Notes under the pieces: model-generated
Told to the model about the DNA's origin: nothing
Seen by the model: the letters and a program-made list of their open reading frames with translations, nothing else
Database searches by the model: none
Position numbers and translations under genes: made by a program
IMG/VR virus record: IMGVR_UViG_3300031160_000001
Origin: a virus
Reading direction: 5' to 3' (one strand)
Length of the DNA: 64,000 bases
Shown: positions 2,854-45,712 of the stretch, one piece after another
Position numbering within the stretch: the first letter of the stretch is position 1
Layout: each line of letters opens with the position of its first letter

Positions 2854-3342
2854 TTAAGAGTCTGATTCGTCCTTTTTACTTTGAATAATTTCTTGTTTGC
2901 GAGCTATTGAACGTTGCACTTTACTTTCTAATTCACTCTTTACCCATTCGATCATTTTATTTAATGCCCATTCAGGAATCCAAGTACCCCAACCTGCTCT
3001 AATTGCATTGGCTGTCATAGATTGGATAGTGTGAATAATTAATCCACCTGCTAACAATCCAAAAAATACAGGAGGTAACCCAAAAATCATATCTACAAAG
3101 TTTCCCCCCACAGGAAGCATAATCATAAAAAAAGTTCTAAAAACTCCATCTATCCCATAGTGAGAGCCATAGGTTTCATCTTTTCTCGATGCTCTAATAC
3201 CTGCTATCCAATCCAAACAAATAAAAAGAGCTAAAGCGAGCATTATATACAATGTAACCACACCATCACCATATAAAAAACTAAAGACGGGCGTTACAAT
3301 AGAACCTATAAACGCCGAAGTTATTTTTGCCCCACTTTCCAT
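2854..3342 (-). CDS. Phage holin (toxin-secretion/phage-lysis holin family)
   Basis: Three hydrophobic segments, CLDWIAGIRAS and IQSMTANAIRAG patterns, immediately upstream of the endolysin. Confidence 0.8.
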   Translation of the reverse strand: MESGAKITSAFIGSIVTPVFSFLYGDGVVTLYIMLALALFICLDWIAGIRASRKDETYGSHYGIDGVFRTFFMIMLPVGGNFVDMIFGLPPVFFGLLAGGLIIHTIQSMTANAIRAGWGTWIPEWALNKMIEWVKSELESKVQRSIARKQEIIQSKKDESDS

Positions 3343-3376
3343 AATAACACCTCTTTTAAATCATAAATAAAGAGTG

Positions 3377-3401
3377 AAGAGGTGGTATTACCACCTCTTC
3401 A
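3377..3401 (-). terminator. Hairpin terminator upstream of the lysis genes
   Basis: gaagaggtggt-att-accacctcttc inverted repeat followed by U-rich sequence on the minus strand. Confidence 0.6.
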
Positions 3402-3417
3402 AAATATAATGGTTGAC

Positions 3418-3567
3418 TTATTCTATTTCTATTTCTGTAATTAAATCTTCTCGATCTTTAGATATTAAATAATCATCAACAACTTCTTGTAAATCAGGGT
3501 ACTTTAATACGACTTGAACATAATCAAATTTTCCATCAATTATACGTTGTGCTAAATAGTTTCCCAT
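3418..3567 (-). CDS. Small phage protein (49 aa) typical of the tail-fibre/lysis boundary
   Basis: Translated by hand: MGNYLAQRIIDGKFDYVQVVLKYPDLQEVVDDYLISKDREDLITEIEIE; GGTGGTG RBS; below the ORF-track cutoff. Confidence 0.65.
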   Translation of the reverse strand: MGNYLAQRIIDGKFDYVQVVLKYPDLQEVVDDYLISKDREDLITEIEIE

Positions 3568-3568
3568 A

Positions 3569-3625
3569 TTATGCACCACCCATTAAAAGATCTGAAATGG
3601 CACCTGCTTTAATTACGTTCTCCAT
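3569..3625 (-). pseudogene. 18-aa micro-ORF, probable C-terminal remnant of a replaced gene
   Basis: MENVIKAGAISDLLMGGA with a strong GGAGGTG RBS, at the edge of the GC-rich cassette. Confidence 0.45.
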
Positions 3626-3654
3626 GATGGCACCTCCAAAAATATAGGCCCCGC

Positions 3655-3912
3655 CTATTCGGCGGAGCCTGCATCAGGCTCGGGCTCAGCAACCGTCGGC
3701 TCCTCGCCCCATACTGCGAAAATCGCAGACTTGTATGGCTCCGGCACTTCGTCCTGTACCTGCTGTCGTCCGGATGAGCTGTTTACATAGGCGCGACGCC
3801 ACGGATCGCCAATGGGATATTCGACTCCATCGACTTCGACGTACTGCTGTTTCTTAATACTCACCCCGTCCGGCGTAAGCATGTCCAGCGAATACCTTTC
3901 GATAATATCCAT
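3655..3912 (-). CDS. Tail-fibre-associated small protein (putative chaperone)
   Basis: 85-aa ORF directly after the tail fibre gene, with RBS. Confidence 0.6.
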   Translation of the reverse strand: MDIIERYSLDMLTPDGVSIKKQQYVEVDGVEYPIGDPWRRAYVNSSSGRQQVQDEVPEPYKSAIFAVWGEEPTVAEPEPDAGSAE

Positions 3913-3925
3913 ATCACTTCACCCC

Positions 3926-5122
3926 TTATATATAATACATCCCGTGAGCAGACAAACGGGTACTATTGGAAAACACATTATCCCCAACTGGAGCGCCGTC
4001 TGTATCATCCCCGTTTGCGTTCAAAACCATATAATTTGCACCGTACGCACCCTGAAGCGAAACTAATCTGTATTGAGACGCCAACGAAATGTTTTTGAAT
4101 TCCCCCACAGGAGTGAATGGTACCATTCCTCCGGCAATATTGTAAGGAAGTCCGTAAATGGCCCCCAATCCTGTAGCCGATCCTTTACTTGAAAGTTGGA
4201 TCTCGAATGCCCAGTAGACAACATTACCGATTCTTGTGTAACGCCCTACCCTCTTTGAGTATGTGATCCCCGAATTGTTTCCTCCGAACCGCAGGTCCGG
4301 CGTCCACGATCCGGTTTCATACGGGAGATTTCCGGCGTGCCAGATGTTGTTTGTCCCTAGCTGCGCTGCCACACCATCATTGGTCAGCTTAAGTAAATCT
4401 CTAATCCAATTTCCTGCTGCGTCGCGGAGTTGGACATAAAACGCACTGTTATCATGGAGGATATTGATTCTATTGTTTATGTCAGTGTCGATTAGCCAAA
4501 CGGCTGGCCACTTGGATTCTATAAACAAATCGCGCGTTAACGTCCCGCCGCTGCTAGTGATTAATTCAGCCCAAGATGTCCACGTGTCCCCGCCGTTGAA
4601 TGATGACCTTGTGTACACGCGATTTTCATAGGGGTCGCCTCCCCAAAACGCGTACCAGACTTGACGTATGTGTTGGCCATCCTGATTGTAAACGAGTAGC
4701 ACGCCCATCGTAGGGACCGGAGCATTTACAGCTCCCTCTGCAACGCCGTACATACCGGTGTCTTTTAAGTTATTTACATCCCCGTTATAGGGCGGTACTT
4801 TGCTGCGACCGTTATCTCCTGTCAACTTAAACCGTTGCCAGTTCACAGTTTCCGCCACATGTGCATCAAACTCCGTCTTAGTCGCCTGCTTTACGTTATC
4901 GACATTGCCTAATCCGACATCACCTTTTCCGAGTGATACCGCGCCAGTTTTCCCATTTACACTCGTAACGGGAGGCGCAGGAATTTGAGCTATCTTTTGA
5001 TCCGTATAATCCTTAGCATTTTGCTCCGCGATATCAGCCTTCGCTTGCGAGTCAACTACATTCTCTATTTGAACTAGTTGATTATCTTTAACTATTTTTG
5101 AGTCCTGCTTTATGATTGCCAT
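3926..5122 (-). CDS. Tail fibre / receptor-binding protein
   Basis: VTSVNGKTGAV repeat, knob-like segment (VNNLKDTGMY..NAPV..GVLLV), C-terminal YETGSWTP..GRYTRIGNVV domain typical of phage fibres. Confidence 0.8.
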   Translation of the reverse strand: MAIIKQDSKIVKDNQLVQIENVVDSQAKADIAEQNAKDYTDQKIAQIPAPPVTSVNGKTGAVSLGKGDVGLGNVDNVKQATKTEFDAHVAETVNWQRFKLTGDNGRSKVPPYNGDVNNLKDTGMYGVAEGAVNAPVPTMGVLLVYNQDGQHIRQVWYAFWGGDPYENRVYTRSSFNGGDTWTSWAELITSSGGTLTRDLFIESKWPAVWLIDTDINNRINILHDNSAFYVQLRDAAGNWIRDLLKLTNDGVAAQLGTNNIWHAGNLPYETGSWTPDLRFGGNNSGITYSKRVGRYTRIGNVVYWAFEIQLSSKGSATGLGAIYGLPYNIAGGMVPFTPVGEFKNISLASQYRLVSLQGAYGANYMVLNANGDDTDGAPVGDNVFSNSTRLSAHGMYYI

Positions 5123-5176
5123 TAAACCCCACCTTTCTTTTCTTGGGCTAATTTATCTTGTATTATCGAAACTTCC

Positions 5177-5194
5177 TATAAGTAAAAAGAGAGC
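5177..5194 (-). terminator. Intrinsic terminator after the XerD-like gene
   Basis: gagagcc-cgaa-ggctctc hairpin with a U-run on the minus strand. Confidence 0.7.
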
Positions 5195-5204
5195 CCGAAG
5201 GCTC

Positions 5205-6044
5205 TCAAAAATATTTTCGATATATTTCGCGCCGACGTTCTCCGCTCAGCTGAGCATAGAGTTTTGTCGTATCGATCTTGGCGTGTCCGAGAAATGATTG
5301 TATGACCTCGAGCGGAGCGCCGTTGTTAAGCAAGTGTGTCGCATATGAGTGTCTTAGACTGTGTGGGAAAACATTGACCTCAATGCCTGCGCGTTTGGCG
5401 ATACGCTTGATAATGTATCGCATCTGAGCGATTGACATCCGCCTCGGAGCTCGTTCGGTAACGAACAACGCGATGTCTGTGTCTCGTCTACTCCGGAGAT
5501 AACGTCTGAGTAGTATAGCGCACCTTGTAGTAAAATAAACCTCGCGTTCCTTATCCCCTTTGCCCCGGACAATGATACTGCGCGATTCAAAGTTTATTGA
5601 GTTTCGGTTAAGCTGCACAATCTCTCCGATCCGGCAACCAGTCGCGTAAAAGATCTCGATGAGTGCTGCTTCAAGGTACGAGGTTGCAGCGACTCGCAGT
5701 TCCTCGATCACATCCTCCGATAACGCCTTCGGGATACGATGCCCCTGCTTCGGTTCCTTAAGCTTCGCGGCTGGATTGCGCTGTGTCAGTCCTTCATCAT
5801 GCGCATATCGGAATAGCGACTTGAGAAAACGCACACGATGACCGATGCTCGCTGGCTTCAGGTGCCGCGTCGATTCAACAAGATAGCCTTTTAGCATTTC
5901 GTAGGTGATGGTTTGCACATCGACATCGCCGATATGCCGGACTAGAAGTTGCAACTGGAGATGATAGGCTTTCAGGGTATGCGAAGAATACCCCTCTAGC
6001 CTCTTGTCTGCCTCGTATGCAGACCAGAGTGAGGATAGTAACAT
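5205..6044 (-). CDS. XerC/XerD-like tyrosine recombinase (279 aa)
   Basis: ATGCRIGE, VRGKGDKER, FPHSLRHSYATHLL, LGHAKIDTTKLY: all catalytic residues present; start moved to ATG 6044 because of an AAGGAG RBS. Confidence 0.93.
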   Translation of the reverse strand: MLLSSLWSAYEADKRLEGYSSHTLKAYHLQLQLLVRHIGDVDVQTITYEMLKGYLVESTRHLKPASIGHRVRFLKSLFRYAHDEGLTQRNPAAKLKEPKQGHRIPKALSEDVIEELRVAATSYLEAALIEIFYATGCRIGEIVQLNRNSINFESRSIIVRGKGDKEREVYFTTRCAILLRRYLRSRRDTDIALFVTERAPRRMSIAQMRYIIKRIAKRAGIEVNVFPHSLRHSYATHLLNNGAPLEVIQSFLGHAKIDTTKLYAQLSGERRREIYRKYF

Positions 6045-6086
6045 GATATAACCAACTCCTTGGCATTGGTATTTGCCCTTGGGATT

Positions 6087-6154
6087 GTGGTACAGGCAAG
6101 CGCCCAAGGAACGCCTTTCATCCGAGTGATCAGTTCGGACTAGCCTGCATCCAC
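6087..6154 (-). ncRNA. Candidate structured RNA (three-way junction) in the recombinase leader
   Basis: P1 UGCAGGC/GCCUGUA, P2 UCCGA/UCGGA, P3 AGGCGU/GCGCUU; lies just downstream of an extended -10. Confidence 0.55.
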
Positions 6155-6155
6155 A

Positions 6156-6164
6156 ATTATACCA
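6156..6164 (-). promoter_or_regulatory. Extended -10 promoter for the recombinase
   Basis: TGGTATAAT (TG-n-TATAAT) on the minus strand. Confidence 0.65.
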
Positions 6165-6215
6165 TGCGCTTCCTCAGTTTTCCATAATCTAGAACTTCGT
6201 TAGTTTAATTACAAA

Positions 6216-7292
6216 TCACGGAATAAAAGCGGAGCGGAACCCGAGTGTCGGGCTCACGACCGAGCGAGTGTAGCCCAAGTTGAGCGCGAAAACGCCCGCA
6301 CTGGAGCCATTGCGCCAGTAGCCGCCGCGAGCCGCCAGTCGTTCTCCCCCGGCAATAAACCAGTACGCATCGTTCCCGTAATCCGCAGAACCTGAGCTGC
6401 TAGTAGTAGCCGGAATCGCAAGTGCTGACCAGTCCATGCTCGGCGTATTCGGGATCGCACCTTCGCGCATCGTAAGAATACGGTTTCCGCTGCTCATGCC
6501 GGTAGTAATATTCACACCTGTATTTACCCAATCCGATTCATTATCTGTGAAATTGTTGTCAATCATCACATAGGCGGCGCCGTCAATGATTTTCAGTCCT
6601 TGCACCCATTCCCATACGTTACCGTTCAAGTCGTAAATCCCTGCCGGTGTGTTATCGTGTGCCCAAGAGGCGGGTCCCGATCCGGTAGCGACACGGCCCG
6701 TCTTGCCAGCCTCAGAATCAAAATATGTTTCTTTGCCTCGTTCATACGAGGCGGAAATGTCTGCGCCATAGTTATTGTTGCCTCGTGGTTGGAAACCGTT
6801 AGCTTTGCACCAGAGGGCAATCACAGCCCACTCGGCATTGGTCATAAGGTGCCAGCCTGCTCCTTTCGCCGTGCAGTAGCCCTTTGCCGCATCGTAATTG
6901 ATAGAAGCCCTCGGGTCTTGCATCGGCAAGCTAATTGCGCGTTCACTGCCTGATGCACCAACTACAATGTTCTGATATTTAGAGATAAAAATTTCTGGTT
7001 TAATCACGCCATTCACGATAAACGCAGGATGCGGTGTAGTTGGTGCGCCCGGTATAAGCTCGTCAAGCGTTTTAACTGTAAACTTGACCATGATACTAGG
7101 GTTGCCAAAGTCATCATATAGTACGGTGTTTTTACCAAAGGTTATATCTTCAAGACGTTTTTGCCAGTCACGTTGTATATCTTCGTTCGTCGTTACACCG
7201 TTCGAAAAAAAGTCTCTCGTGATCTGCAGTTCAAGCTCTCTTGCTTTGACTGCAATCTCGCGCGAAAAATACTTTCCGCTTACATACTTCAT
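6216..7292 (-). CDS. Mtd-like / FGE-sulfatase C-type-lectin-fold protein (DGR target type), copy 1
   Basis: FISKYQN, GWHLMTNAEWAVIAL, DLNGNVWEW and C-terminal RGGYW...LGFRSAFIP, the architecture of DGR target proteins. Confidence 0.85.
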   Translation of the reverse strand: MKYVSGKYFSREIAVKARELELQITRDFFSNGVTTNEDIQRDWQKRLEDITFGKNTVLYDDFGNPSIMVKFTVKTLDELIPGAPTTPHPAFIVNGVIKPEIFISKYQNIVVGASGSERAISLPMQDPRASINYDAAKGYCTAKGAGWHLMTNAEWAVIALWCKANGFQPRGNNNYGADISASYERGKETYFDSEAGKTGRVATGSGPASWAHDNTPAGIYDLNGNVWEWVQGLKIIDGAAYVMIDNNFTDNESDWVNTGVNITTGMSSGNRILTMREGAIPNTPSMDWSALAIPATTSSSGSADYGNDAYWFIAGGERLAARGGYWRNGSSAGVFALNLGYTRSVVSPTLGFRSAFIP

Positions 7293-7340
7293 ACGATTTC
7301 ACCGCCTTCGATAGTAGTAACTTCCAACACGGGAACAAAA

Positions 7341-8405
7341 TCACGGAATAAAAGCGGAGCGGAAGCCAACGTTCGAACGCAAGTTCCACCGAGGGTCGTT
7401 CAGGTTGAGCGCGAACACCCCGGCAGCAGCGACACCCTGCCAGTCGCCGCCGCGAATCGGCAGCCGTTCTCCCGCTACATTAAACCAATATCCGTCGTTA
7501 CCGTAATCCGCAGAACCTGAGCTGCTGGTAGTGGCCGGAATCGCAAGTGCTGACCAGTCCATGCTCGGCGTATTTGGGATAGCACCTTCGCGCATCGTCA
7601 GAATTCGATGCCCGCTGGTCATGCCGGCAGTGATATTCACCCCGGTATTTACCCATGCCGATTCGGGATCAGCAAAGTTGTTGTCGATCATGACATGAGC
7701 AATACTGTCGATGATTTTCAGTCCTTGTACCCACTCCCAGACATTTCCGCACAAATCAGCGATACCGTCTAGGGTTCCATCGTGGTTCCAGGATGCTGGG
7801 CCGGAACTGGTCAGAGTGCGATGATAACTACCGGAGGTCGTCTTCACGCCGCGTTCATAAGGTGCGTCAGAAGAAGCCCCGTTACTTGTGTTTCCTCGGG
7901 GCATTTTGCCTACCTTTCGGCACCACAACGCAATGGCCGCCCATTCGGCGTTGGTCATGAGGTGCCAGCCTGTACCTTTGTTAGCACAGTATTGACGAGC
8001 ATTATCAAAACTAATTGAAGCCCGCGGGTCTGTCATCGGCAAGCTAATTGCGCGTTCACTGCCTGATGCACCAACCACAATATTTTGGTACTTTGATATA
8101 AAAATCTCTGGTTTCATTTTGCCGTTCACAATAAAAGCAGGATGCGGACTGGTCGGCGCACCTGGTATAAGCTCGTCAAGTGTTTTAACTGTAAACTTTA
8201 CCATCACGCTAGGATTTCCTAAGTCGTCATAGATAACTGTATTTTTTCCGAAAGTCAAGTCTTCAAGACGTTTTTGCCAGTCTCGCTGTGTATCAACACT
8301 CGTCGTAGGCCCTTTCGTGAAAAAGTCGCGAGCAAGCTGCATCTCTAACTCACGGCCTTTTACAGCGATCTCGCGCGAAAAATACTTACCGTTCACATAT
8401 TTCAT
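7341..8405 (-). CDS. Mtd-like / FGE-sulfatase C-type-lectin-fold protein (DGR target type), copy 2
   Basis: Tandem paralogue; same motifs, C-terminal RGGDW...VGFRSAFIP; last 24 nt identical to copy 1. Confidence 0.85.
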   Translation of the reverse strand: MKYVNGKYFSREIAVKGRELEMQLARDFFTKGPTTSVDTQRDWQKRLEDLTFGKNTVIYDDLGNPSVMVKFTVKTLDELIPGAPTSPHPAFIVNGKMKPEIFISKYQNIVVGASGSERAISLPMTDPRASISFDNARQYCANKGTGWHLMTNAEWAAIALWCRKVGKMPRGNTSNGASSDAPYERGVKTTSGSYHRTLTSSGPASWNHDGTLDGIADLCGNVWEWVQGLKIIDSIAHVMIDNNFADPESAWVNTGVNITAGMTSGHRILTMREGAIPNTPSMDWSALAIPATTSSSGSADYGNDGYWFNVAGERLPIRGGDWQGVAAAGVFALNLNDPRWNLRSNVGFRSAFIP

Positions 8406-8617
8406 GTTTCTTCGCCGCCTTCATTGGTCTCTGGTTCAGGTACAGGAAAAAGCTCCGAAAAATTCCTCCGCAAGTCAGCTTCAAAGATATGCACATACCG
8501 TTCTGCCGTTTGTCTATCTCCTTTTACTTCTGTTTCTCCTTGCAAGTTTACGCCTTCGTCAGAAAAATCGACTTTTATTCTTGTCACGCCGTTCAACTCT
8601 TCAAACAAAGCAATCAT
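8402..8617 (-). CDS. Hypothetical protein (tail-tip module)
   Basis: 71-aa ORF with 4-bp overlaps to both neighbours. Confidence 0.6.
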   Translation of the reverse strand: MIALFEELNGVTRIKVDFSDEGVNLQGETEVKGDRQTAERYVHIFEADLRRNFSELFPVPEPETNEGGEET

Positions 8618-9012
8618 ATCTCCATCACCGCCACCTCTACTGAGTTTGCACTTTCAGATACCGCAAAAATCTGCACGACTACGCTAGGATTAAAGTTAAA
8701 TTCAATGATCCCTCCCGGTTCGACCGGGAATCCAGTGGCTGCTGTAACTGTTGACGATCCTATGCGGATCCGATACTGTGTTGACTCGTTTTTGACGATG
8801 AGATACCGTCTGTTTTCTTTTCGCGATGCACCTGCGAAAATTTCCGCCGCTGTTGCCGTCACAGTTTTAACACCTGTCACAGGTGCGGCATCAACTGTAT
8901 CTATACTCCCCGTTAGTTTGACACCCTCTGAATACGTCCCGTCCCCATTATCTATCATTTTGATTTTAATAGAGTCGTTACCGACCCCGTATCTTGTGCT
9001 TGTATCAGCCAT
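8614..9012 (-). CDS. Hypothetical beta-rich virion-associated protein
   Basis: 132 aa, RBS GAGGTG, operonic; contains the KLTGS motif. Confidence 0.6.
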   Translation of the reverse strand: MADTSTRYGVGNDSIKIKMIDNGDGTYSEGVKLTGSIDTVDAAPVTGVKTVTATAAEIFAGASRKENRRYLIVKNESTQYRIRIGSSTVTAATGFPVEPGGIIEFNFNPSVVVQIFAVSESANSVEVAVMEI

Positions 9013-9023
9013 TATTAATCACC

Positions 9024-9224
9024 TCAAATTGGTAAACTTTTCAGTGGATCTGGGCAATTTTCAACAACCCAATCACCACCGATAAACTCGATGTTTTGAT
9101 CAGTAGCGTTATATCGACTTATTAGACCAAACATAGTCATTTCCGGCTCATCTTCTGTTGGAAGAAAATCATCATAAATCCCCTGCAAAATGGATATGAT
9201 TTGTTGTTTTCGTTGTTCATCCAT
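9024..9224 (-). CDS. Hypothetical protein
   Basis: 66 aa, GGAGGT RBS, operonic. Confidence 0.55.
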   Translation of the reverse strand: MDEQRKQQIISILQGIYDDFLPTEDEPEMTMFGLISRYNATDQNIEFIGGDWVVENCPDPLKSLPI

Positions 9225-9228
9225 AGTG

Positions 9229-9786
9229 TTACCTCCATACTCTCACAACTCTGATTGTAACCGTGGCTGTTTCTGAACTGTAGTTTACAACCTTAATCTG
9301 TTCATTCGATGCTGGGATTGCTACGCTTTTAGCCTCTTGTAAAGACGTGGGTTCTGTCAATCCAACATTACTTGCGAAACTAAAACCCAAAAATAACGAG
9401 ATGCATGGGTTAGATAAGTTAGAATATGCCGTTGTAACATTTTCCCTTTTAGGGTATACGCAATTCAAACTACTATAGCCGTGTGCAACATTCCAAGCTG
9501 CACCAGATCTGAACGACCAAGGCTGTTTATCACAGTTGATAAGGACATATGTTTCGTCTTCTCCCTTACCACCAATGCTTACAGGTGTGGTCTGACCTCC
9601 AGACGATGGCACAGACTGTGCATTAACAAGTGTTTCAACCTCTACTCTAGCAACCCTCTTAACCGGAATTGCTTGTGTATCTTGCACACTACTCCCCGTT
9701 AGTTCAACTTCTCCCTTAACTTTCAATGCCTTGCTTACATTATCTTTAAGCGTTCCTATAATTTCTGATAAACTAAATAAAGCCAT
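9229..9786 (-). CDS. Hypothetical virion-associated protein
   Basis: 185 aa, GAGGAG RBS; contains the ELTGS motif. Confidence 0.6.
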   Translation of the reverse strand: MALFSLSEIIGTLKDNVSKALKVKGEVELTGSSVQDTQAIPVKRVARVEVETLVNAQSVPSSGGQTTPVSIGGKGEDETYVLINCDKQPWSFRSGAAWNVAHGYSSLNCVYPKRENVTTAYSNLSNPCISLFLGFSFASNVGLTEPTSLQEAKSVAIPASNEQIKVVNYSSETATVTIRVVRVWR

Positions 9787-9803
9787 ATATTTATCTCACT
9801 CCT

Positions 9804-10253
9804 CTAAAAAATAACATTCTCTGTGACTTCTGGGAAAAAATAGTTCCTTTTGGAGTCTATTCGAACAGCATCAACTTCCGCAAGACCGTGCTGAATCCCA
9901 AACAACACTTCGAAAAAATCCTCAACTGCACTCTCTTCTGTGAATGCCACATCCACAACTTCAATATCTTCTACTTCTTGGTCACTATAAGTTGACCAGG
10001 CTTCGATAAACTCACCAACACATAAATATCCATTGCTCATTAGTCTTACTTGATCCACTTCCAGAAGCACAGATTCGATTCCAAGAAATAATTGAAGTAG
10101 CGAAGATAATTCATCTTCGTCGTTAATTAAAACATTCTCGTCAATCATCAGATTTTCATCAACCAAAGACTCTTCGTCAAATCCAAATTGAATTTCAACA
10201 ATCTCTCCAGCTAAAGAAACGGTCTTGTCTTTGTTTATTCTTTTTATGATCAT
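9804..10253 (-). CDS. Hypothetical acidic protein with two internal repeats
   Basis: 149 aa, overlaps the upstream stop; two halves F(D/T)EES...LFxGI...L.EVD.VR. Confidence 0.6.
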   Translation of the reverse strand: MIIKRINKDKTVSLAGEIVEIQFGFDEESLVDENLMIDENVLINDEDELSSLLQLFLGIESVLLEVDQVRLMSNGYLCVGEFIEAWSTYSDQEVEDIEVVDVAFTEESAVEDFFEVLFGIQHGLAEVDAVRIDSKRNYFFPEVTENVIF

Positions 10254-11905
10254 GTCAATACCTCAAAATCAATACTATCTAAATCTTTGTTATGTACGAT
10301 TTGAAATCTATTACCTATAGGAATAGGAATGCTACCGTCTCTAGGAATACTTGCGTTTTTGGCATTCTGCTCCGCTAAGTCGGCTTTGCTTTGTGCTCCT
10401 TCTGGTGTCTCTGCGCCCACATCTTCGTAAGTTAATTGAACATTACCCTGAGCATCTGGAGACTTGTTATTAACACTTGATACAGATCCTAATCCATCAA
10501 GCCCCTTTTGGGCTACCAAAGTCCAAAATTGCCCCTCTACTGGTGTCACACCCTGACAATCTTGCATACAACGCCAAGTTGAGCCGTTGTATCTTACATG
10601 ATTGTTTTTAACATATTGAGTAGACGGATTGTATTCTCCTAAATGTACAGATGTGTTCACCAAATTCTGTGCATTATTCGCCGCTGAATTCGCATTATTT
10701 ATAGCTGTCGTTGTATTTATCTGACGCTCATCTTCTTGTGATTGTCTTATTGCTTCATTATCCTGTCTCGTTTGTTCTGCAGATTGACGATTCGCTTCAT
10801 TATTTTGCCTTGTTAATTCATTAGTTTGTCTTATACTTTCATTAGATTCTCTAGTGTCTTCATTAGATTCTCTAAGAGTTTCATTTGCTTGACGAGTAGA
10901 TTCTTGTGATTGTCTAGTTGCTTCGTTTGATTCTCTTACGCTTTCCTGAGAGATTCTTAATTGCTCATTAGACTCCCTATTACTTTCAGCAGCAGCACGA
11001 TTTGATTCAGCAGATTGACGATTATTCTCATTGGATATCCTTGTATTTTCATTCAGTTTTCTAGTAGCCTCTTCTATCAAACGATCTGATTCAGCCAATT
11101 CACGATAAAGTTCTGCTTGAATCCTATTATACTCATTGTCATTGCGTTGCACTTCGTTTTCTTCTCTGATACTTTCAGCTTCAGATCGTGCTTCTTCGGC
11201 TTGATTAATTAATTGAATAGTCTCATCAATATTTATTATTTCTTTCCAATAATTAGAGTTGGTAAGAGGAATACCCGTACTCGAAACAACTGCTTGATAT
11301 AAAATGGTTTTATCAGAGTTTGATACCACATCACCAGCATTATAGCTACTTGCTGTATTATATGTTCCTCTCCATCTAAAACCTGAAACTAATACCCAAT
11401 AATTAGGATTAGAAGGAGAATTACCTTGGGTTGATTGTTTGCATAAATACAATGATCCACCATAGGAAACTAAATTAAACTTTTGATAAATGGTTTCTGA
11501 ATTATATTCCCCTATATAATAAAAGTTGTTTGCACCCTCAGTAAGATCGCTTAAAAGCTGAACAACTTCACCATTGTTTTCTATAGTATAAATACGTGAA
11601 GCAGGGATAAAAACCAATCCTCTACCAAAAAAATGGACTTGGACTGTTTTACCTTCTTCAGATGGATTAAAAAATACATGACCAGATAGATAATTAACGT
11701 AAAACTGATTACTGTTTAATCCTTGAGCGATATTTAAGACTTCAGAGTAGCCGGTAATCTGAACCCTTTTGCGCTCTACAGGAAGTTCAGATAATAAAAT
11801 CTTTCCATTAATAATCTTATATGTCTCAGTATATTCTACAAATTCATCTCCATCTAATCCACTTCGTAGTTCATATATCAAAGGGTTATTATTATACATA
11901 ACCAT
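10250..11905 (-). CDS. Tail fibre / baseplate protein with carbohydrate-binding-like repeats and a long heptad coiled coil
   Basis: YIGEYN..Y....VSYGGSLY repeats, R..NE/R..AE 7-aa repeats, SVSSVNNKSPD..GNV motif; position after the tail spike. Confidence 0.7.
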   Translation of the reverse strand: MVMYNNNPLIYELRSGLDGDEFVEYTETYKIINGKILLSELPVERKRVQITGYSEVLNIAQGLNSNQFYVNYLSGHVFFNPSEEGKTVQVHFFGRGLVFIPASRIYTIENNGEVVQLLSDLTEGANNFYYIGEYNSETIYQKFNLVSYGGSLYLCKQSTQGNSPSNPNYWVLVSGFRWRGTYNTASSYNAGDVVSNSDKTILYQAVVSSTGIPLTNSNYWKEIINIDETIQLINQAEEARSEAESIREENEVQRNDNEYNRIQAELYRELAESDRLIEEATRKLNENTRISNENNRQSAESNRAAAESNRESNEQLRISQESVRESNEATRQSQESTRQANETLRESNEDTRESNESIRQTNELTRQNNEANRQSAEQTRQDNEAIRQSQEDERQINTTTAINNANSAANNAQNLVNTSVHLGEYNPSTQYVKNNHVRYNGSTWRCMQDCQGVTPVEGQFWTLVAQKGLDGLGSVSSVNNKSPDAQGNVQLTYEDVGAETPEGAQSKADLAEQNAKNASIPRDGSIPIPIGNRFQIVHNKDLDSIDFEVLT

Positions 11906-12064: not shown

Positions 12065-13234
12065 TTATGCGATTTTATACGTCTTAGCATTTTTCAAATT
12101 AATCGCAGCATTCACGTCTCGATCCACCACATTTTCGCAATTATCGCAAACAAAAATTCGATCTGATAACTTTAGATTACTTTTTTTATACCCACAACAT
12201 GAACATAATTTACTGGATGGATAGAAACGATCAACAATTCTCAATTCAATTCCATGAACCTTACATTTTGCTTCAAGTTTGGATCGGAATTGATGAAAAC
12301 CTTGTTGTGCGATCGCTTTTGATAAATGCTTATTTTTCATCATGCCTCTAACATTCAAATCTTCAATTGTTATAAAGCGTGGTTTTTGCTTTATAATCAT
12401 ATTTATCGTCTGATTAATATGATTTTCTCGAATGTTAGAGAGTCGTTGATGAAGTTTCTGCACCTTCAGGATTTGTTTTTGGATATTTTGTCCAGTAGCA
12501 GTTTCCTCCTTCCTATTTTTATTTTTCTTTGCTTCCTCATATTTTCTCGAAAGTTTTCTTTGTTGACGTTTTAATGATTTCTCAAGTTTCCTTACTTTGG
12601 TTGTTTTATTTATATTTTTGATTTGTTGATCACTATTTGATAGAGTTGCAAATTTTCCAACTCCAAGATCAATTCCAATACCATCATTAAAATTTTCAAA
12701 TTTTTTTTGTTCATTGTCTTCAATTAAAACAGATACATAATAACGTCCTGCTTTTTGTGATATGGTTCCGCTTCTAATGATTGCTTTTGTTGGAATATAA
12801 CCATATTCTTTTAATCTTACCCATCCCAATGTAGGAATTTTAATTCGATGACGTTCGCATTTGATAATAGTTTTCGCATCGTTTTTTACAAAATACATTT
12901 TTACGTCTTGATTCTTTTTCTTTTTAAACTTAGGAAATCCTGATTGTCCTTTAAAGAATTGTTTAAATGCTCGCTCAGCATTCATAATCGACTGTTTAGC
13001 GGCTTTTGCATAAACTTGTTTGATCCACTGATAATCTGGATTGTTTGGAATGAATTCATTATTTAACCACTTGGAAAAATCCATTCCTGATACAAAATGT
13101 TTTTCCTTTTCATATACTTCTTTATTATGCGCGATATAGAAATTATAAACATATCTGCAAACACCAATTGTTTGATTAAATATTTTCTTCTGTGTTTCGT
13201 TCAATTGAATTTCTGTCTTGTACGATCTTAGCAA
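12065..13234 (-). CDS. tnpB: TnpB RNA-guided nuclease
   Basis: RuvC motifs GIDLG, IEDLNV, DRDVNAAIN and zinc finger CSCC..CDNC all intact; likely TTG start at 13234 after GGAGG. Confidence 0.93.
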   Translation of the reverse strand: MLRSYKTEIQLNETQKKIFNQTIGVCRYVYNFYIAHNKEVYEKEKHFVSGMDFSKWLNNEFIPNNPDYQWIKQVYAKAAKQSIMNAERAFKQFFKGQSGFPKFKKKKNQDVKMYFVKNDAKTIIKCERHRIKIPTLGWVRLKEYGYIPTKAIIRSGTISQKAGRYYVSVLIEDNEQKKFENFNDGIGIDLGVGKFATLSNSDQQIKNINKTTKVRKLEKSLKRQQRKLSRKYEEAKKNKNRKEETATGQNIQKQILKVQKLHQRLSNIRENHINQTINMIIKQKPRFITIEDLNVRGMMKNKHLSKAIAQQGFHQFRSKLEAKCKVHGIELRIVDRFYPSSKLCSCCGYKKSNLKLSDRIFVCDNCENVVDRDVNAAINLKNAKTYKIA

Positions 13235-13826
13235 TATCTTCATCCTCCAGAATTTTATTTTTATACTTTCTAAGCCCGTAGATTTTACAAGAGAAAACAT
13301 GAATAATACTTATCAAATCTTGCACTAATTCCTCTTGCGGTGAAAGTTTTTCATTATTTACTACAATTAGTTCTACTCCATTAGACTCTAAAAATTTCTT
13401 AAACCAATCGTAACCAAAGCGGATAAATCTATCTTTATGAGATACTAAGATTTTTGAAATATGACCTAACATACATTCTTCAAGTAGTTTATTCCACTTT
13501 TTTCGATTGTAATTAAGGCCGCTTCCAATATCCTCAAATATCTCATCAACAATAATCCCTTTTGCATTAGCATATTGTTTAAGAAATTCTACCTGATTAT
13601 TTAAATCATCTTTTTGATTTGAGGTAGATACTCTTGTATAAATAACAACTTTTCCGTTCGGATGACTTTCACCAATATAATCTACGTATTGTTTATGAGT
13701 ATAATATCTTCTTCCTGAAGGATGACGATTGGCAATTAACTTTTTCTCACGATCCCATCGTTGAAGTGTTTTTACAGAAACGCCGATCATTTCTGCAAAT
13801 TCTTGTGGCTTATAGTGATTACTCAT
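13176..13826 (-). CDS. tnpA: IS607 transposase (MerR-like HTH + serine recombinase)
   Basis: EFAEMIGVSVKTLQRWD, IYTRVSTSNQKDDL, DIGSGLNYNRK, QDLISIIHVFSCKIYG; start at ATG 13826. Confidence 0.95.
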   Translation of the reverse strand: MSNHYKPQEFAEMIGVSVKTLQRWDREKKLIANRHPSGRRYYTHKQYVDYIGESHPNGKVVIYTRVSTSNQKDDLNNQVEFLKQYANAKGIIVDEIFEDIGSGLNYNRKKWNKLLEECMLGHISKILVSHKDRFIRFGYDWFKKFLESNGVELIVVNNEKLSPQEELVQDLISIIHVFSCKIYGLRKYKNKILEDEDIAKIVQDRNSIERNTEENI

Positions 13827-13864
13827 AGATTTCATTCCTTTCTGTAATAATAATCCATGAGTAT

Positions 13865-13893
13865 AATTTATCACATATAAACACATTTGTCAA
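13865..13893 (-). promoter_or_regulatory. sigmaA-type promoter in the IS607 left end
   Basis: TTGACA-17 bp-TAAATT with TG extension. Confidence 0.65.
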
Positions 13894-44620: not shown

Positions 44621-45712
44621 ATGAACGTTGTGCAATTACCTGTTCTTTATACAACACACTCAAAAGACCAAGACTATGTTTATGAACATATAATGCGTTT
44701 TCTAAAAGGAAAGGCTAGAAGTAGTGAAAATACCGCAAAAAAATTTAAGCGAGACATTGAAATGTTCTTTAAAGTAGTTAGAGGTAAAGAACTTCATGAA
44801 TTAACCAAAAATGACTTGAAAGTAACAAATAGCGAAGTAGTAGATTATCAAGAATATTTGTCTAAAAACTATAAGAACTCAATAGTAAATAATGCTTTTA
44901 CAGCAGTAAGAAGCTTATACAAATATCTAAAGCGCAATGATTTTGATGTTAATCCAGATGCAGTCATTGTAGACCGTTTACCTGATGACACACTGTCTAC
45001 AGGGTATTTGCATCATGACGAGGTTATGAAATTGGCAGAGCTTGCTCTTGAAGAAAAACACGATCCCATCATGAAAAAGGCGATTATTGAAGTTGCCTAT
45101 GGGACGAGTCTGAGAATTAATGCCTTGTTGAAAATCAGATATAGAGATCTACGAGGAGACGAAATTGATCCAAACAAATATTGGATTGAACCTAGAGACG
45201 TAGACGAAGAAGGTCATATAACCAAAGATAAAAGCAAGATGATTAAAAAAGTCATACATGCTGAAGCTATTGAACCTATGCTGCGCTTGAAAAAGGCATA
45301 TGGTTATTCTGATGATGATTATGTCTTCCAGATTAGCCCAAGAGCATTAAATGACATGATCAAGCGTTTAGTTAAAAAAGCAGGATTAGATCCTAAAAGG
45401 GGGATCACTTTTCACAGTTTAAGAAAAGCTGGAGCCATGTCAGCGAGTAAATTATCCAACGGGAATCCTTTTGTTGTATCTAAGCAGGGTAATTGGGAAA
45501 ATCTCGAAACTGTGAATAGACATTATATTCAAAGCCAAGAAAACATAATGGGTATGGCTGCTTTTGAAAACTTTGAAGAGGATATTTATGAACAATTGAC
45601 CAAGGAACAATTGATTGAGTTGCTGAATAGTTTAAACGGAGATATCTTGGAGATTAAGCTTAAACGAGAAGCAAGAAAAATGATTGCAGAGAGCAGGAAA
45701 AGAGAATGTTAA
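44621..45712 (+). CDS. Tyrosine recombinase/integrase-family protein
   Basis: SAM-like N-terminus, GTSLRINAL, TFHSLRKAG, QGNW..TVNRHY. Confidence 0.85.
   Translation: MNVVQLPVLYTTHSKDQDYVYEHIMRFLKGKARSSENTAKKFKRDIEMFFKVVRGKELHELTKNDLKVTNSEVVDYQEYLSKNYKNSIVNNAFTAVRSLYKYLKRNDFDVNPDAVIVDRLPDDTLSTGYLHHDEVMKLAELALEEKHDPIMKKAIIEVAYGTSLRINALLKIRYRDLRGDEIDPNKYWIEPRDVDEEGHITKDKSKMIKKVIHAEAIEPMLRLKKAYGYSDDDYVFQISPRALNDMIKRLVKKAGLDPKRGITFHSLRKAGAMSASKLSNGNPFVVSKQGNWENLETVNRHYIQSQENIMGMAAFENFEEDIYEQLTKEQLIELLNSLNGDILEIKLKREARKMIAESRKREC

Follow-up and report, generated by a model that had tools for sequence, protein, structure and literature searches.

A XerD-like recombinase among tail genes

The window that we analysed is a 64,000-nucleotide stretch (bases 12-64011) of the 148.6-kb IMG/VR virus record IMGVR_UViG_3300031160_000001, and the subject of this report is a XerD-like tyrosine recombinase gene that lies there among tail genes, on a small cassette of its own. 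Every gene of interest is on the minus strand. In the order of transcription they are a 551-aa fibre gene (10250-11905), orf149, orf185, orf66, orf132, orf71, two Mtd-like genes, the recombinase gene, a 398-aa fibre gene, an 85-aa gene and, finally, low-GC holin and endolysin genes. An earlier, sequence-only reading of this DNA had noted that the two Mtd-like genes are not followed by the avd, template repeat (TR) and reverse transcriptase (RT) of a diversity-generating retroelement (DGR), and that a promoter, a structured RNA, a recombinase and a fibre gene come next. We confirmed this arrangement, with all of its parts on the minus strand. Loci from other phages and genomes that served for comparison are labelled with L-numbers (L002, L188, L313 and so on).

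The recombinase gene (5205-6044, minus strand) encodes a protein of 279 aa from an ATG at 6044 that is preceded by AAGGAG. The protein matched Pfam Phage_integrase (1e-36) as well as SAM-like domains, and its best match among solved structures was E. coli XerD (1a0p; 1.4e-34 over residues 19-275). All six catalytic residues (the Arg, the Lys, the His-x-x-Arg pair, the second His and the Tyr) align to those of XerD, and the description of the enzyme as an intact tyrosine recombinase therefore holds. It has the length and architecture of XerD, without an arm-binding domain, and is a recombinase of the simple Xer-like type. Judged by length and by matches to solved structures it is not of the IntI type; IntI4 matched residues 203-266 only (7e-16). 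Identity to GenBank phage proteins did not exceed 35%.

The gene belongs to a discrete cassette of 1.03 kb that comprises a promoter, a leader, the gene and a terminator. The homology between the window and L002 spans 6209-5180 only, and the unit ends near 5180, close to an intrinsic terminator at 5189-5206 (minus strand). At its other end a promoter-like site at 6156-6184 (minus strand), TGGAAA-17-TGnTATAAT, has 10 of 12 matches and a TG extension and is the best in the region; the promoters of the relatives have a conserved TTGAC-17/18-TATRRT. Each relative of the recombinase has its own control region and its own terminator. We rejected the downstream hairpin as an attachment (att) site, a role proposed for the hairpin of Tyrovirus gp50, since in the window, as in every relative, it is a plain terminator that varies in sequence and is followed by a T-run.

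In many loci the left boundary of the unit is a palindrome, TTCAACTAAC-(5-7 nt)-GWTAGTTSAA, and one pair of related phages differs in whether the unit is present there. L188 and L002 are collinear at 81-95% identity; L188 has 17 nt where L002 has a 1008-nt unit, and identity is 94.6% beyond the palindrome. L188 is an empty site, and the recombinase unit shows a presence/absence polymorphism at the palindrome. In the window the palindrome is split. Its left part (6182-6208, minus strand) forms the left boundary of the unit and reads TTAAACTAAC-GAAGTTC (6208-6192) followed by a non-consensus arm, and its right part (5158-5175, minus strand) reads GAAGTTTC-GATAATACAA, that is, the spacer repeated and then the right arm. 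About 17 of 20 positions of the right part match the intact L188 site in our own alignment, and the spacer GAAGTTY is present on both sides of the unit. This pattern is what conservative recombination within the spacer would leave. The duplicated spacer was seen clearly only in the window and in copies from Bacillaceae (see below), and an exact 21-nt pattern for an empty version of the window's own site gave no match.

In-frame sites and the replacement of tail cassettes

Two further sites lie within coding sequence upstream of the recombinase. Box s1 (9690-9704, minus strand) has the sequence AACTAACGGGGAGTA and occupies codons 28-32 of orf185; box s2 (8904-8918, minus strand) has the same 15-mer at codons 32-36 of orf132. 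The two form an exact 15-nt direct repeat, and both are read in frame as LTGS, for which reason we call them LTGS boxes. When sequences are compared pair by pair, the 15-mer stands out as an identical stretch within coding sequence that is otherwise unrelated, its flanks being 22-32% identical. At these junctions LTGS is encoded by CTA ACG GGS AGT in 10 of 12 copies; three incidental LTGS motifs use other codons. Judged from its sequence, the 15-mer is a DNA-level element. It corresponds to a half-site, namely the left arm of the palindrome plus the spacer, and it shares 13-16 nt with the arms that border recombinase units.

An exact scan for the 15-mer in the viral collection returned 77 contigs, in which most copies are in frame in tail-region open reading frames (ORFs). 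Among these ORFs a given N-terminal domain precedes various C-terminal modules, and a given C-terminal module follows various N-terminal domains. The palindrome in turn lies directly after the last gene of box-bearing modules, one per phage tail cassette. In each of three independent phage pairs the two members are nearly identical as far as the box, unrelated over 0.6-2.4 kb, and similar again from the palindrome onwards: identity falls at the box from 98% to 29% in L188/L002, from 98% to 27% in L176/L179 and from 86% to 26% in L187/L202. The sequence-only reading had suggested that breakpoints be mapped between related phages, and the outcome contradicts the absence of a shared site, as all three pairs break at box and palindrome.

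The same kind of boundary is present in the window itself, where homology to L007 begins exactly at s2 (window 8918-8614), with an identity of 0.32 upstream and 0.67 downstream. These comparisons suggest that the window has two such cassettes in tandem: an L002-like one that consists of the C-terminal part of orf185 with orf66, and an L007-like one that consists of the C-terminal part of orf132, orf71 and Mtd, with the Mtd gene duplicated.

Boxes or palindromes were found in 13 of 28 non-redundant recombinase loci versus 3 of 80 control tail loci (Fisher 6e-7). Within the recombinase loci the sites are always direct and on the recombinase strand, and no meaningful inverted repeats are present in 3000-10500, which bears out the earlier remark that there are no inverted cassettes.

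A covarying leader RNA

The 68-nt three-way-junction RNA pointed out by the sequence-only reading is real, and it is part of a larger leader of about 125 nt (6042-6166, minus strand). The elements of this leader are P0, P1, P2 with a palindromic loop, P3 with an anti-Shine-Dalgarno loop, a mid copy, and P4 with the Shine-Dalgarno (SD) sequence. P0 is a long-range helix in which CAUGRUAU, overlapping the -10 box, pairs with AUAYCAUG, which contains the start codon. P1 is GCAGGC/GCCUGC, P2 and P3 are hairpins, and a further small hairpin lies around the SD sequence.

We aligned seven relatives at first and later 18 distinct sequences, using RNAalifold and a covariance model. In the model-based alignment 96.8% of cells are paired and 13 pairs have changes on both sides; none of 500 shuffles was as good, and slid controls were 29-48% paired. 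In 16 of 17 sequences the P3 loop can form Watson-Crick pairs over 7-8 nt with a copy some 25 nt upstream of the SD sequence (the seventeenth, from L008, was sliced wrongly by the script), and its complementarity to the SD region proper spans 6-8 nt. The averages for non-cognate combinations were 4.3 and 4.6 nt, and at least six variants of the loop covary with both partners. The P2 loop is a perfect 6-nt palindrome at a fixed position in 16 of 17 sequences and occurs in four versions (UGAUCA, UAGCUA, UAAUUA and UCGCGA); this argues for loop-loop dimerisation. No Rfam family matched the leader, up to E = 1. A loose leader pattern searched in metagenome contigs gave mostly chance matches, of which about 10 in 120 passed the covariance model.

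The idea that the RNA directs the enzyme was not borne out. We found no complementarity between the leader RNA and the DNA sites, and thus no support for its guiding the recombinase; the leader can pair with its own ribosome-binding site. Its sequence reads as a putative cis-acting element of translational control and not as a guide. Such a leader would keep the recombinase scarce. In read-through transcripts P0 would pair the start codon with the unit's own -10 region. Transcripts from the unit's own promoter would begin immediately ahead of P1, without the 5' strand of P0, and this helix would thus silence translation in late read-through transcripts only. In own-promoter transcripts, the P3 loop would switch between the SD sequence and the upstream decoy copy.

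In the fold-back inhibition of IS10 and IS50, the transposase start is hidden by a helix confined to read-through transcripts, and the 5' strand of the helix lies upstream of the element's own transcription start. P0 of the window leader, which likewise would form only in read-through transcripts, resembles this arrangement; the leader differs in that it adds the three-way junction, the P3 loop with its two partners and the palindromic P2 loop.

Just upstream of the -35 element, a LexA-like box (GAAC-N4-GTTC, with at most one mismatch) is present in about 10 of 18 distinct leaders, as counted by reading and without statistics, and is perfect in L027. It is absent or degenerate in the window and in L002. 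We also note that between the window (6045-6209) and L002 (7559-7724) the leader is identical over 125 nt, at a recombinase gene identity of about 77% for DNA and 85% for protein. Very strong constraint could account for this identity, as could a recent exchange of the leader.

Relatives in phages and in Bacillaceae

We collected phage relatives of the recombinase from 30 viral contigs, at 40-91% identity. All are co-oriented with the late genes, and they are repeatedly embedded in late or tail modules. Their positions vary: some lie before the head-tail connectors, some between distal tail genes and the tail endopeptidase, and some just before the holin gene. The control region is of three kinds, namely the RNA leader, a divergent Xre-type helix-turn-helix (HTH) gene with repeated palindromes, or a longer N-terminus.

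Two details of these control regions may be recorded here. At L003, L006, L009, L011-L016, L019 and L022-L024 the leader is replaced by a divergent Xre/HTH_26 gene and three to four repeated palindromes with A-rich spacers; these palindromes are locus-specific and could be operators or further recombinase sites. The left arm, AAACTAACG, occurs twice ahead of the recombinase promoter in L007 (7819-7870) and L071, at a distance of 26 nt; the first copy belongs to a full palindrome, and the second abuts the -35 element.

A scan of species-representative genomes yielded 506 relatives, and we examined the loci of the best 78 (60-69% identity). Almost all of these 78 are from Bacillaceae, with some from Paenibacillus; there are often several per genome, often on contigs of 1-2 kb, and three only adjoin phage tail markers. 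The conserved unit in Bacillaceae is about 1.04 kb, the same size as that of the window; its left flank reads TTCAACTAAC-CTGCCCC-GWTAGTTGAA and its right flank GCACCC-GTTAGTTGAA. Throughout these loci (L236-L313; for example L313:1-12837, L238 and L298), palindromes of about 27 bp, TTCAACTAAC-CTGCCCC-GTTAGTTGAA, stand between single-gene cassettes, with recombinase units of about 1 kb interspersed. As one example, the sites of L313 separate single genes on the opposite strand that encode a MaoC dehydratase, SUKH and Imm11 immunity proteins, and GNAT, SDR and MerR proteins. On the strand of the cassette genes the site reads TTCAACTAAC-GGGGCAG-GTTAGTTGAA, and the phage LTGS box is therefore its left arm and spacer.

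In total we counted 184 sites in 808 kb of Bacillaceae loci, versus 5 and 17 for scrambled controls and none in 743 kb of DGR loci, and about 180 of the 184 share one spacer orientation. The cassettes each end in an imperfect palindrome of one orientation, as integron cassettes do, with sites much shorter than attC. From their sequence organisation the arrays have what is apparently an integron-like or rAID-like architecture. We found no description of such arrays in Bacillota in limited searches of papers. In five complete genomes the exact palindrome pattern, which is too strict to give a density, had six matches in Priestia, all on one strand.

These surveys bear on two expectations of the sequence-only reading. 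It had asked whether homologues sit consistently among variable fibre genes. In the 30 phage loci they are repeatedly embedded in late or tail modules; most of the best 78 genome matches lie in Bacillaceae arrays away from phage genes. It had also asked whether they have the same leader RNA. Only a subset of loci do. In others there is an Xre-type regulator instead, or a simple hairpin that covers the ribosome-binding site; among the Bacillaceae loci the leader RNA is present in one and the simple hairpin in the rest. Homologues do occur in unrelated contexts, yet a role in cassette recombination is strengthened by this result, because those contexts are cassette arrays with the same sites.

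A possible exchange system for receptor-binding modules

We base the following proposal on the established anatomy of the locus, the sites, the breakpoints, the empty site, the covariation of the RNA and the distribution of the family. The LTGS half-sites would mark the joint between a short N-terminal anchor and an exchangeable C-terminal module, and the palindrome TTCAACTAAC-(5-7 nt)-GWTAGTTSAA would mark the 3' end of the cassette. The recombinase would bind TTCAACTAAC-type arms and carry out conservative site-specific recombination there, moving its own unit. With two phage genomes in one cell, exchange of box with box and of palindrome with palindrome would swap the receptor-binding module between them, so that change would come about by exchange and not by inversion. 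We consider the odds about even that the cognate sites are the TTCAACTAAC-type arms and that the enzyme moves its own unit and, on two genomes, can exchange the cassette between box and palindrome. That the recombinase swaps tail-tip cassettes had been suggested before. Of this, the exchange of cassettes stood, with breakpoints at a site that adjoins the recombinase family, and their swapping by the enzyme is plausible.

A broader form of the proposal we put forward tentatively, and at less than even odds. Bacillota phages may possess an integron-like exchange of receptor-binding parts, in which the box would act like attI and the 3' palindrome like attC. A XerD-like recombinase, often SOS-inducible and borne by a 1-kb cassette of its own, whether in the phage or at another place in the cell, would swap C-terminal tail-tip modules, captured DGR targets included, between co-resident phages, and the same pair of enzyme and site would build the Bacillaceae arrays.

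Several observations weigh against the proposal. A recombinase is nearby in 9 of the 77 box-bearing contigs, and is present in 1 of 24 whole records and in 0 of 8 complete genomes. Most box-bearing phages lack a recombinase, and the sites therefore do not need the enzyme in cis; either the enzyme would have to work in trans, or ordinary recombination is what the sites serve. The LTGS boxes have one good arm only, most phage recombinase units have no right-hand site, and excision in cis between box and palindrome is unlikely because the spacers differ (GGGGAGT in the box, GAAGTTC in the palindrome of the window). In one Bacillaceae family the exact box occurred in 6 of 269 genomes versus 4 for a control pattern, which is near chance level. 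Finally, we infer rearrangement at the sites from comparisons of existing genomes, and the breakpoints could equally have arisen from short-homology recombination together with selection for working chimeras.

It is this last process, as general or phage-encoded homologous recombination at short conserved linkers, that would account for tail mosaicism if the recombinase were a selfish mini-element that only inserts its own 1-kb unit into palindromes; the likeness of box and palindrome would then reflect common descent of the linkers. We regard this as the main alternative, a serious if somewhat unlikely one. It fits the presence and absence of the unit at one site, the multiple copies in Bacillaceae, often on contigs of 1-2 kb, the hairpins that sequester the ribosome-binding site, which are typical of transposase genes, and the lack of the enzyme in most site-bearing phages. 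It does not explain why near-identical 20-nt non-coding palindromes are kept at the cassette ends of recombinase-free phages in different contexts, nor why an in-frame box should have so much sequence in common with the arms that border the units. Improbable in our view is a housekeeping role like that of Cre/loxP, in which the enzyme would use the one site beside its gene, either to circularise DNA that enters the cell or to resolve dimers or concatemers. The site does directly adjoin the gene, as loxP does cre, several relatives are in prophages with FtsK-like and replication-relaxation genes, and tyrosine recombinases of unexplained role inside structural modules are on record (PMC9703825). 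However, multi-copy chromosomal units between gene cassettes do not fit such a role, the unit is dispensable in the close relative L188, and its place within late operons varies.

The remaining two explanations we think very improbable. An invertase or shufflon enzyme, or an RNA-directed recombinase, would flip or reshuffle tail-tip segments within one genome with the leader as its guide, for which there are precedents in Gin/Cin and Rci beside fibre genes and a hint in the conservation and elaborateness of the leader. The anatomy has already largely refuted it, as neither inverted repeats nor inverted gene fragments are present and the sites are all direct on the recombinase strand, while close relatives of the enzyme use other regulatory regions without such an RNA, and the covarying contacts of the RNA are with its own ribosome-binding site. 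Membership in the Phage_integrase family would by itself suit a lysogeny integrase. Set against this are the XerD-like length and architecture without an arm-binding domain, the place of the gene amid late genes, and a second, longer tyrosine recombinase in the same record (window about 45005-45541, plus strand, in an open frame of 369 aa), which is the likely true integrase of the phage. Another integrase is likewise present in four of five related proviruses, at their end. On account of these other integrases in the record and in the proviruses, we rejected the gene as the primary integrase.

Were the proposed action of the recombinase at these sites borne out, it would supply a defined mechanism for the long-observed mosaicism of phage tail fibres, with its sharp module boundaries, and would extend integron-like gene capture to Bacillota and to the in-frame exchange of protein domains. 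For laboratory phages, sites and enzyme could also provide a means of swapping receptor-binding modules. In its own right the leader is a new, well-supported RNA motif; its unusual features are a read-through-specific helix, a loop that can pair with either of two partners, and another whose sequence is always palindromic. Even on the selfish-element reading, this 1-kb tyrosine-recombinase unit, of which there are more than 500 copies across genomes, seems not to have been catalogued before.

Comparison with known recombination systems

Integrons consist of the integrase IntI, an attI site and arrays of cassettes with attC sites, which are folded and 60-120 nt long. The system described here is like them in that a tyrosine recombinase adjoins arrays of mostly single-gene cassettes, each of which ends in an imperfect palindrome of one orientation, and in that a simple site (in our case the in-frame box) could take the role of attI. 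Integron integrases have a LexA box at their promoter (PMC3108266), and many relatives of the window recombinase have a LexA-like box before theirs. The window system is, from its features, evidently not a member of the integron family: the enzyme is XerD-like, with 279 aa and only a weak match to IntI4, the sites measure about 27 bp, the array includes the recombinase unit as one of its cassettes, and the phage cassettes are parts of tail genes joined in frame.

The rAID-1 clusters of Bacteroidales (Ross et al., bioRxiv 10.1101/471110) are brought to mind by the SUKH and Imm11 immunity genes of the Bacillaceae arrays. We set the two side by side for their architecture. They belong to different phyla, rAID-1 genes are co-directional with a 5' recombinase whereas the Bacillaceae cassettes are opposite to theirs, and the description of rAID-1 includes no phage tail context. 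With dif/pdif modules the system shares a Xer-type enzyme and short two-arm sites with a 5-7-nt spacer that border exchangeable modules; pdif modules use the host XerC/XerD and sites of alternating orientation, whereas here a dedicated single recombinase on its own unit goes with direct sites. Gin/Cin and the Rci shufflon also combine a recombinase beside fibre genes with a crossover site inside a gene, at the junction of constant and variable parts, but they invert segments between inverted sites of one genome; no inverted sites are present here, and change would be by exchange or insertion. Likened to the window by position, Tyrovirus gp50, Perkons and the 949 group have a XerC/D-like gene within the structural module, among tail genes, with a function that is stated to be unknown (PMC9703825).

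The Mtd-like genes as orphan DGR targets

The two Mtd-like genes, mtdA (7341-8405, minus strand) and its tandem paralogue mtdB (6216-7292, minus strand), encode orphan DGR-type target proteins with a C-type-lectin/FGE fold. Both matched the FGE-sulfatase/C-type-lectin domain in Pfam at 1e-9 to 1e-10, and PHROG 2889 at 6.5e-105. Their DNA sequences are 81-86% identical and diverge sharply in the last 120 nt or so, the C-termini being like the variable repeat (VR) of a DGR. A hidden DGR was considered and rejected, as the whole 148.6-kb record has no RT (RVT_1) and no further copy of the VR, besides that in the paralogue, that could serve as TR. In other phages, 39 of 80 loci with Mtd homologues have a repeat about 450-550 nt downstream that differs from the VR almost only at the repeat's own adenines. 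The family is therefore one of true DGR targets, and the pair in the window are orphans. Compared with the DGR of BPP-1, of the Mtd type, the window has genes from a family mostly accompanied by a template repeat that differs at adenines only; it has neither RT nor TR, and here the Mtd-like genes are passengers of a cassette.

As a separate observation on this family, L344, L345 and L351 have three to four tandem VR/TR-like repeats of 110-118 nt after one DGR target gene, where a single template repeat is usual.

Other genes and features of the region

Against a background of about 32% GC in the record, one block, between about 9700 and about 3625, reaches 42-55%. GC rises from 0.32 to 0.43 at the first LTGS box and drops from 0.55 to 0.27-0.39 at a terminator (3646-3670, minus strand) that closes the GC-rich island. 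We rejected an assembly chimera as the source of the block, as the two flanks are of the same low-GC phage with the modules in the correct order, and for the same reason we regard the block as an acquired, foreign module. A second GC-rich block, with 0.46 versus about 0.32, lies at about 80-84 kb of the same record, outside the window.

The product of orf185 (9229-9786, minus strand) is a small tail-distal protein with a short N-terminus, the LTGS junction and a C-terminal module, for which a protein atlas gave weak leads only (SPbeta YouA, XepA and the PRD1 P5 spike, with scores below 0.9). The small gene orf66 (9024-9224, minus strand) accompanies the orf185 module and is 74% identical to the gene immediately upstream of the recombinase unit in L002. 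The product of orf132 (8614-9012, minus strand) is likewise a small tail-distal protein, with an N-terminus, the LTGS junction and a jelly-roll-like C-terminal module; its homologues in L007 and L235 are similar only in the portion after LTGS, and the protein atlas gave viral clusters at 0.96-0.97 and a structural TM of 0.72, which are leads only. Searches of PHROG and Pfam with the box-bearing proteins yielded almost nothing. The small gene orf71 (8402-8617, minus strand) links orf132 to the Mtd-like genes and is 55% identical to its counterpart in L007, where the order is kept.

Downstream of the recombinase, the 398-aa fibre gene (3926-5122, minus strand) has tail-fibre PHROG matches, and its C-terminus is 48% identical to the L003 fibre. 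The sequence-only reading had assigned a chaperone to this fibre. An 85-aa gene does follow it (3655-3912, minus strand), without a Pfam or PHROG family match; a possible role as fibre chaperone is suggested by its position and by a 78%-identical gene after the fibre in L003.

Beyond the GC-rich block, an IS607-type pair (a 411-aa TnpB-like ORF and a 236-aa serine-recombinase-like ORF) sits at 12065-13886 of the window, between an FN3-rich tail protein and the 551-aa fibre. The endolysin (1138-2769) has the unusual length of 543 aa; further domains follow its amidase, and its C-terminus is LysM-like.

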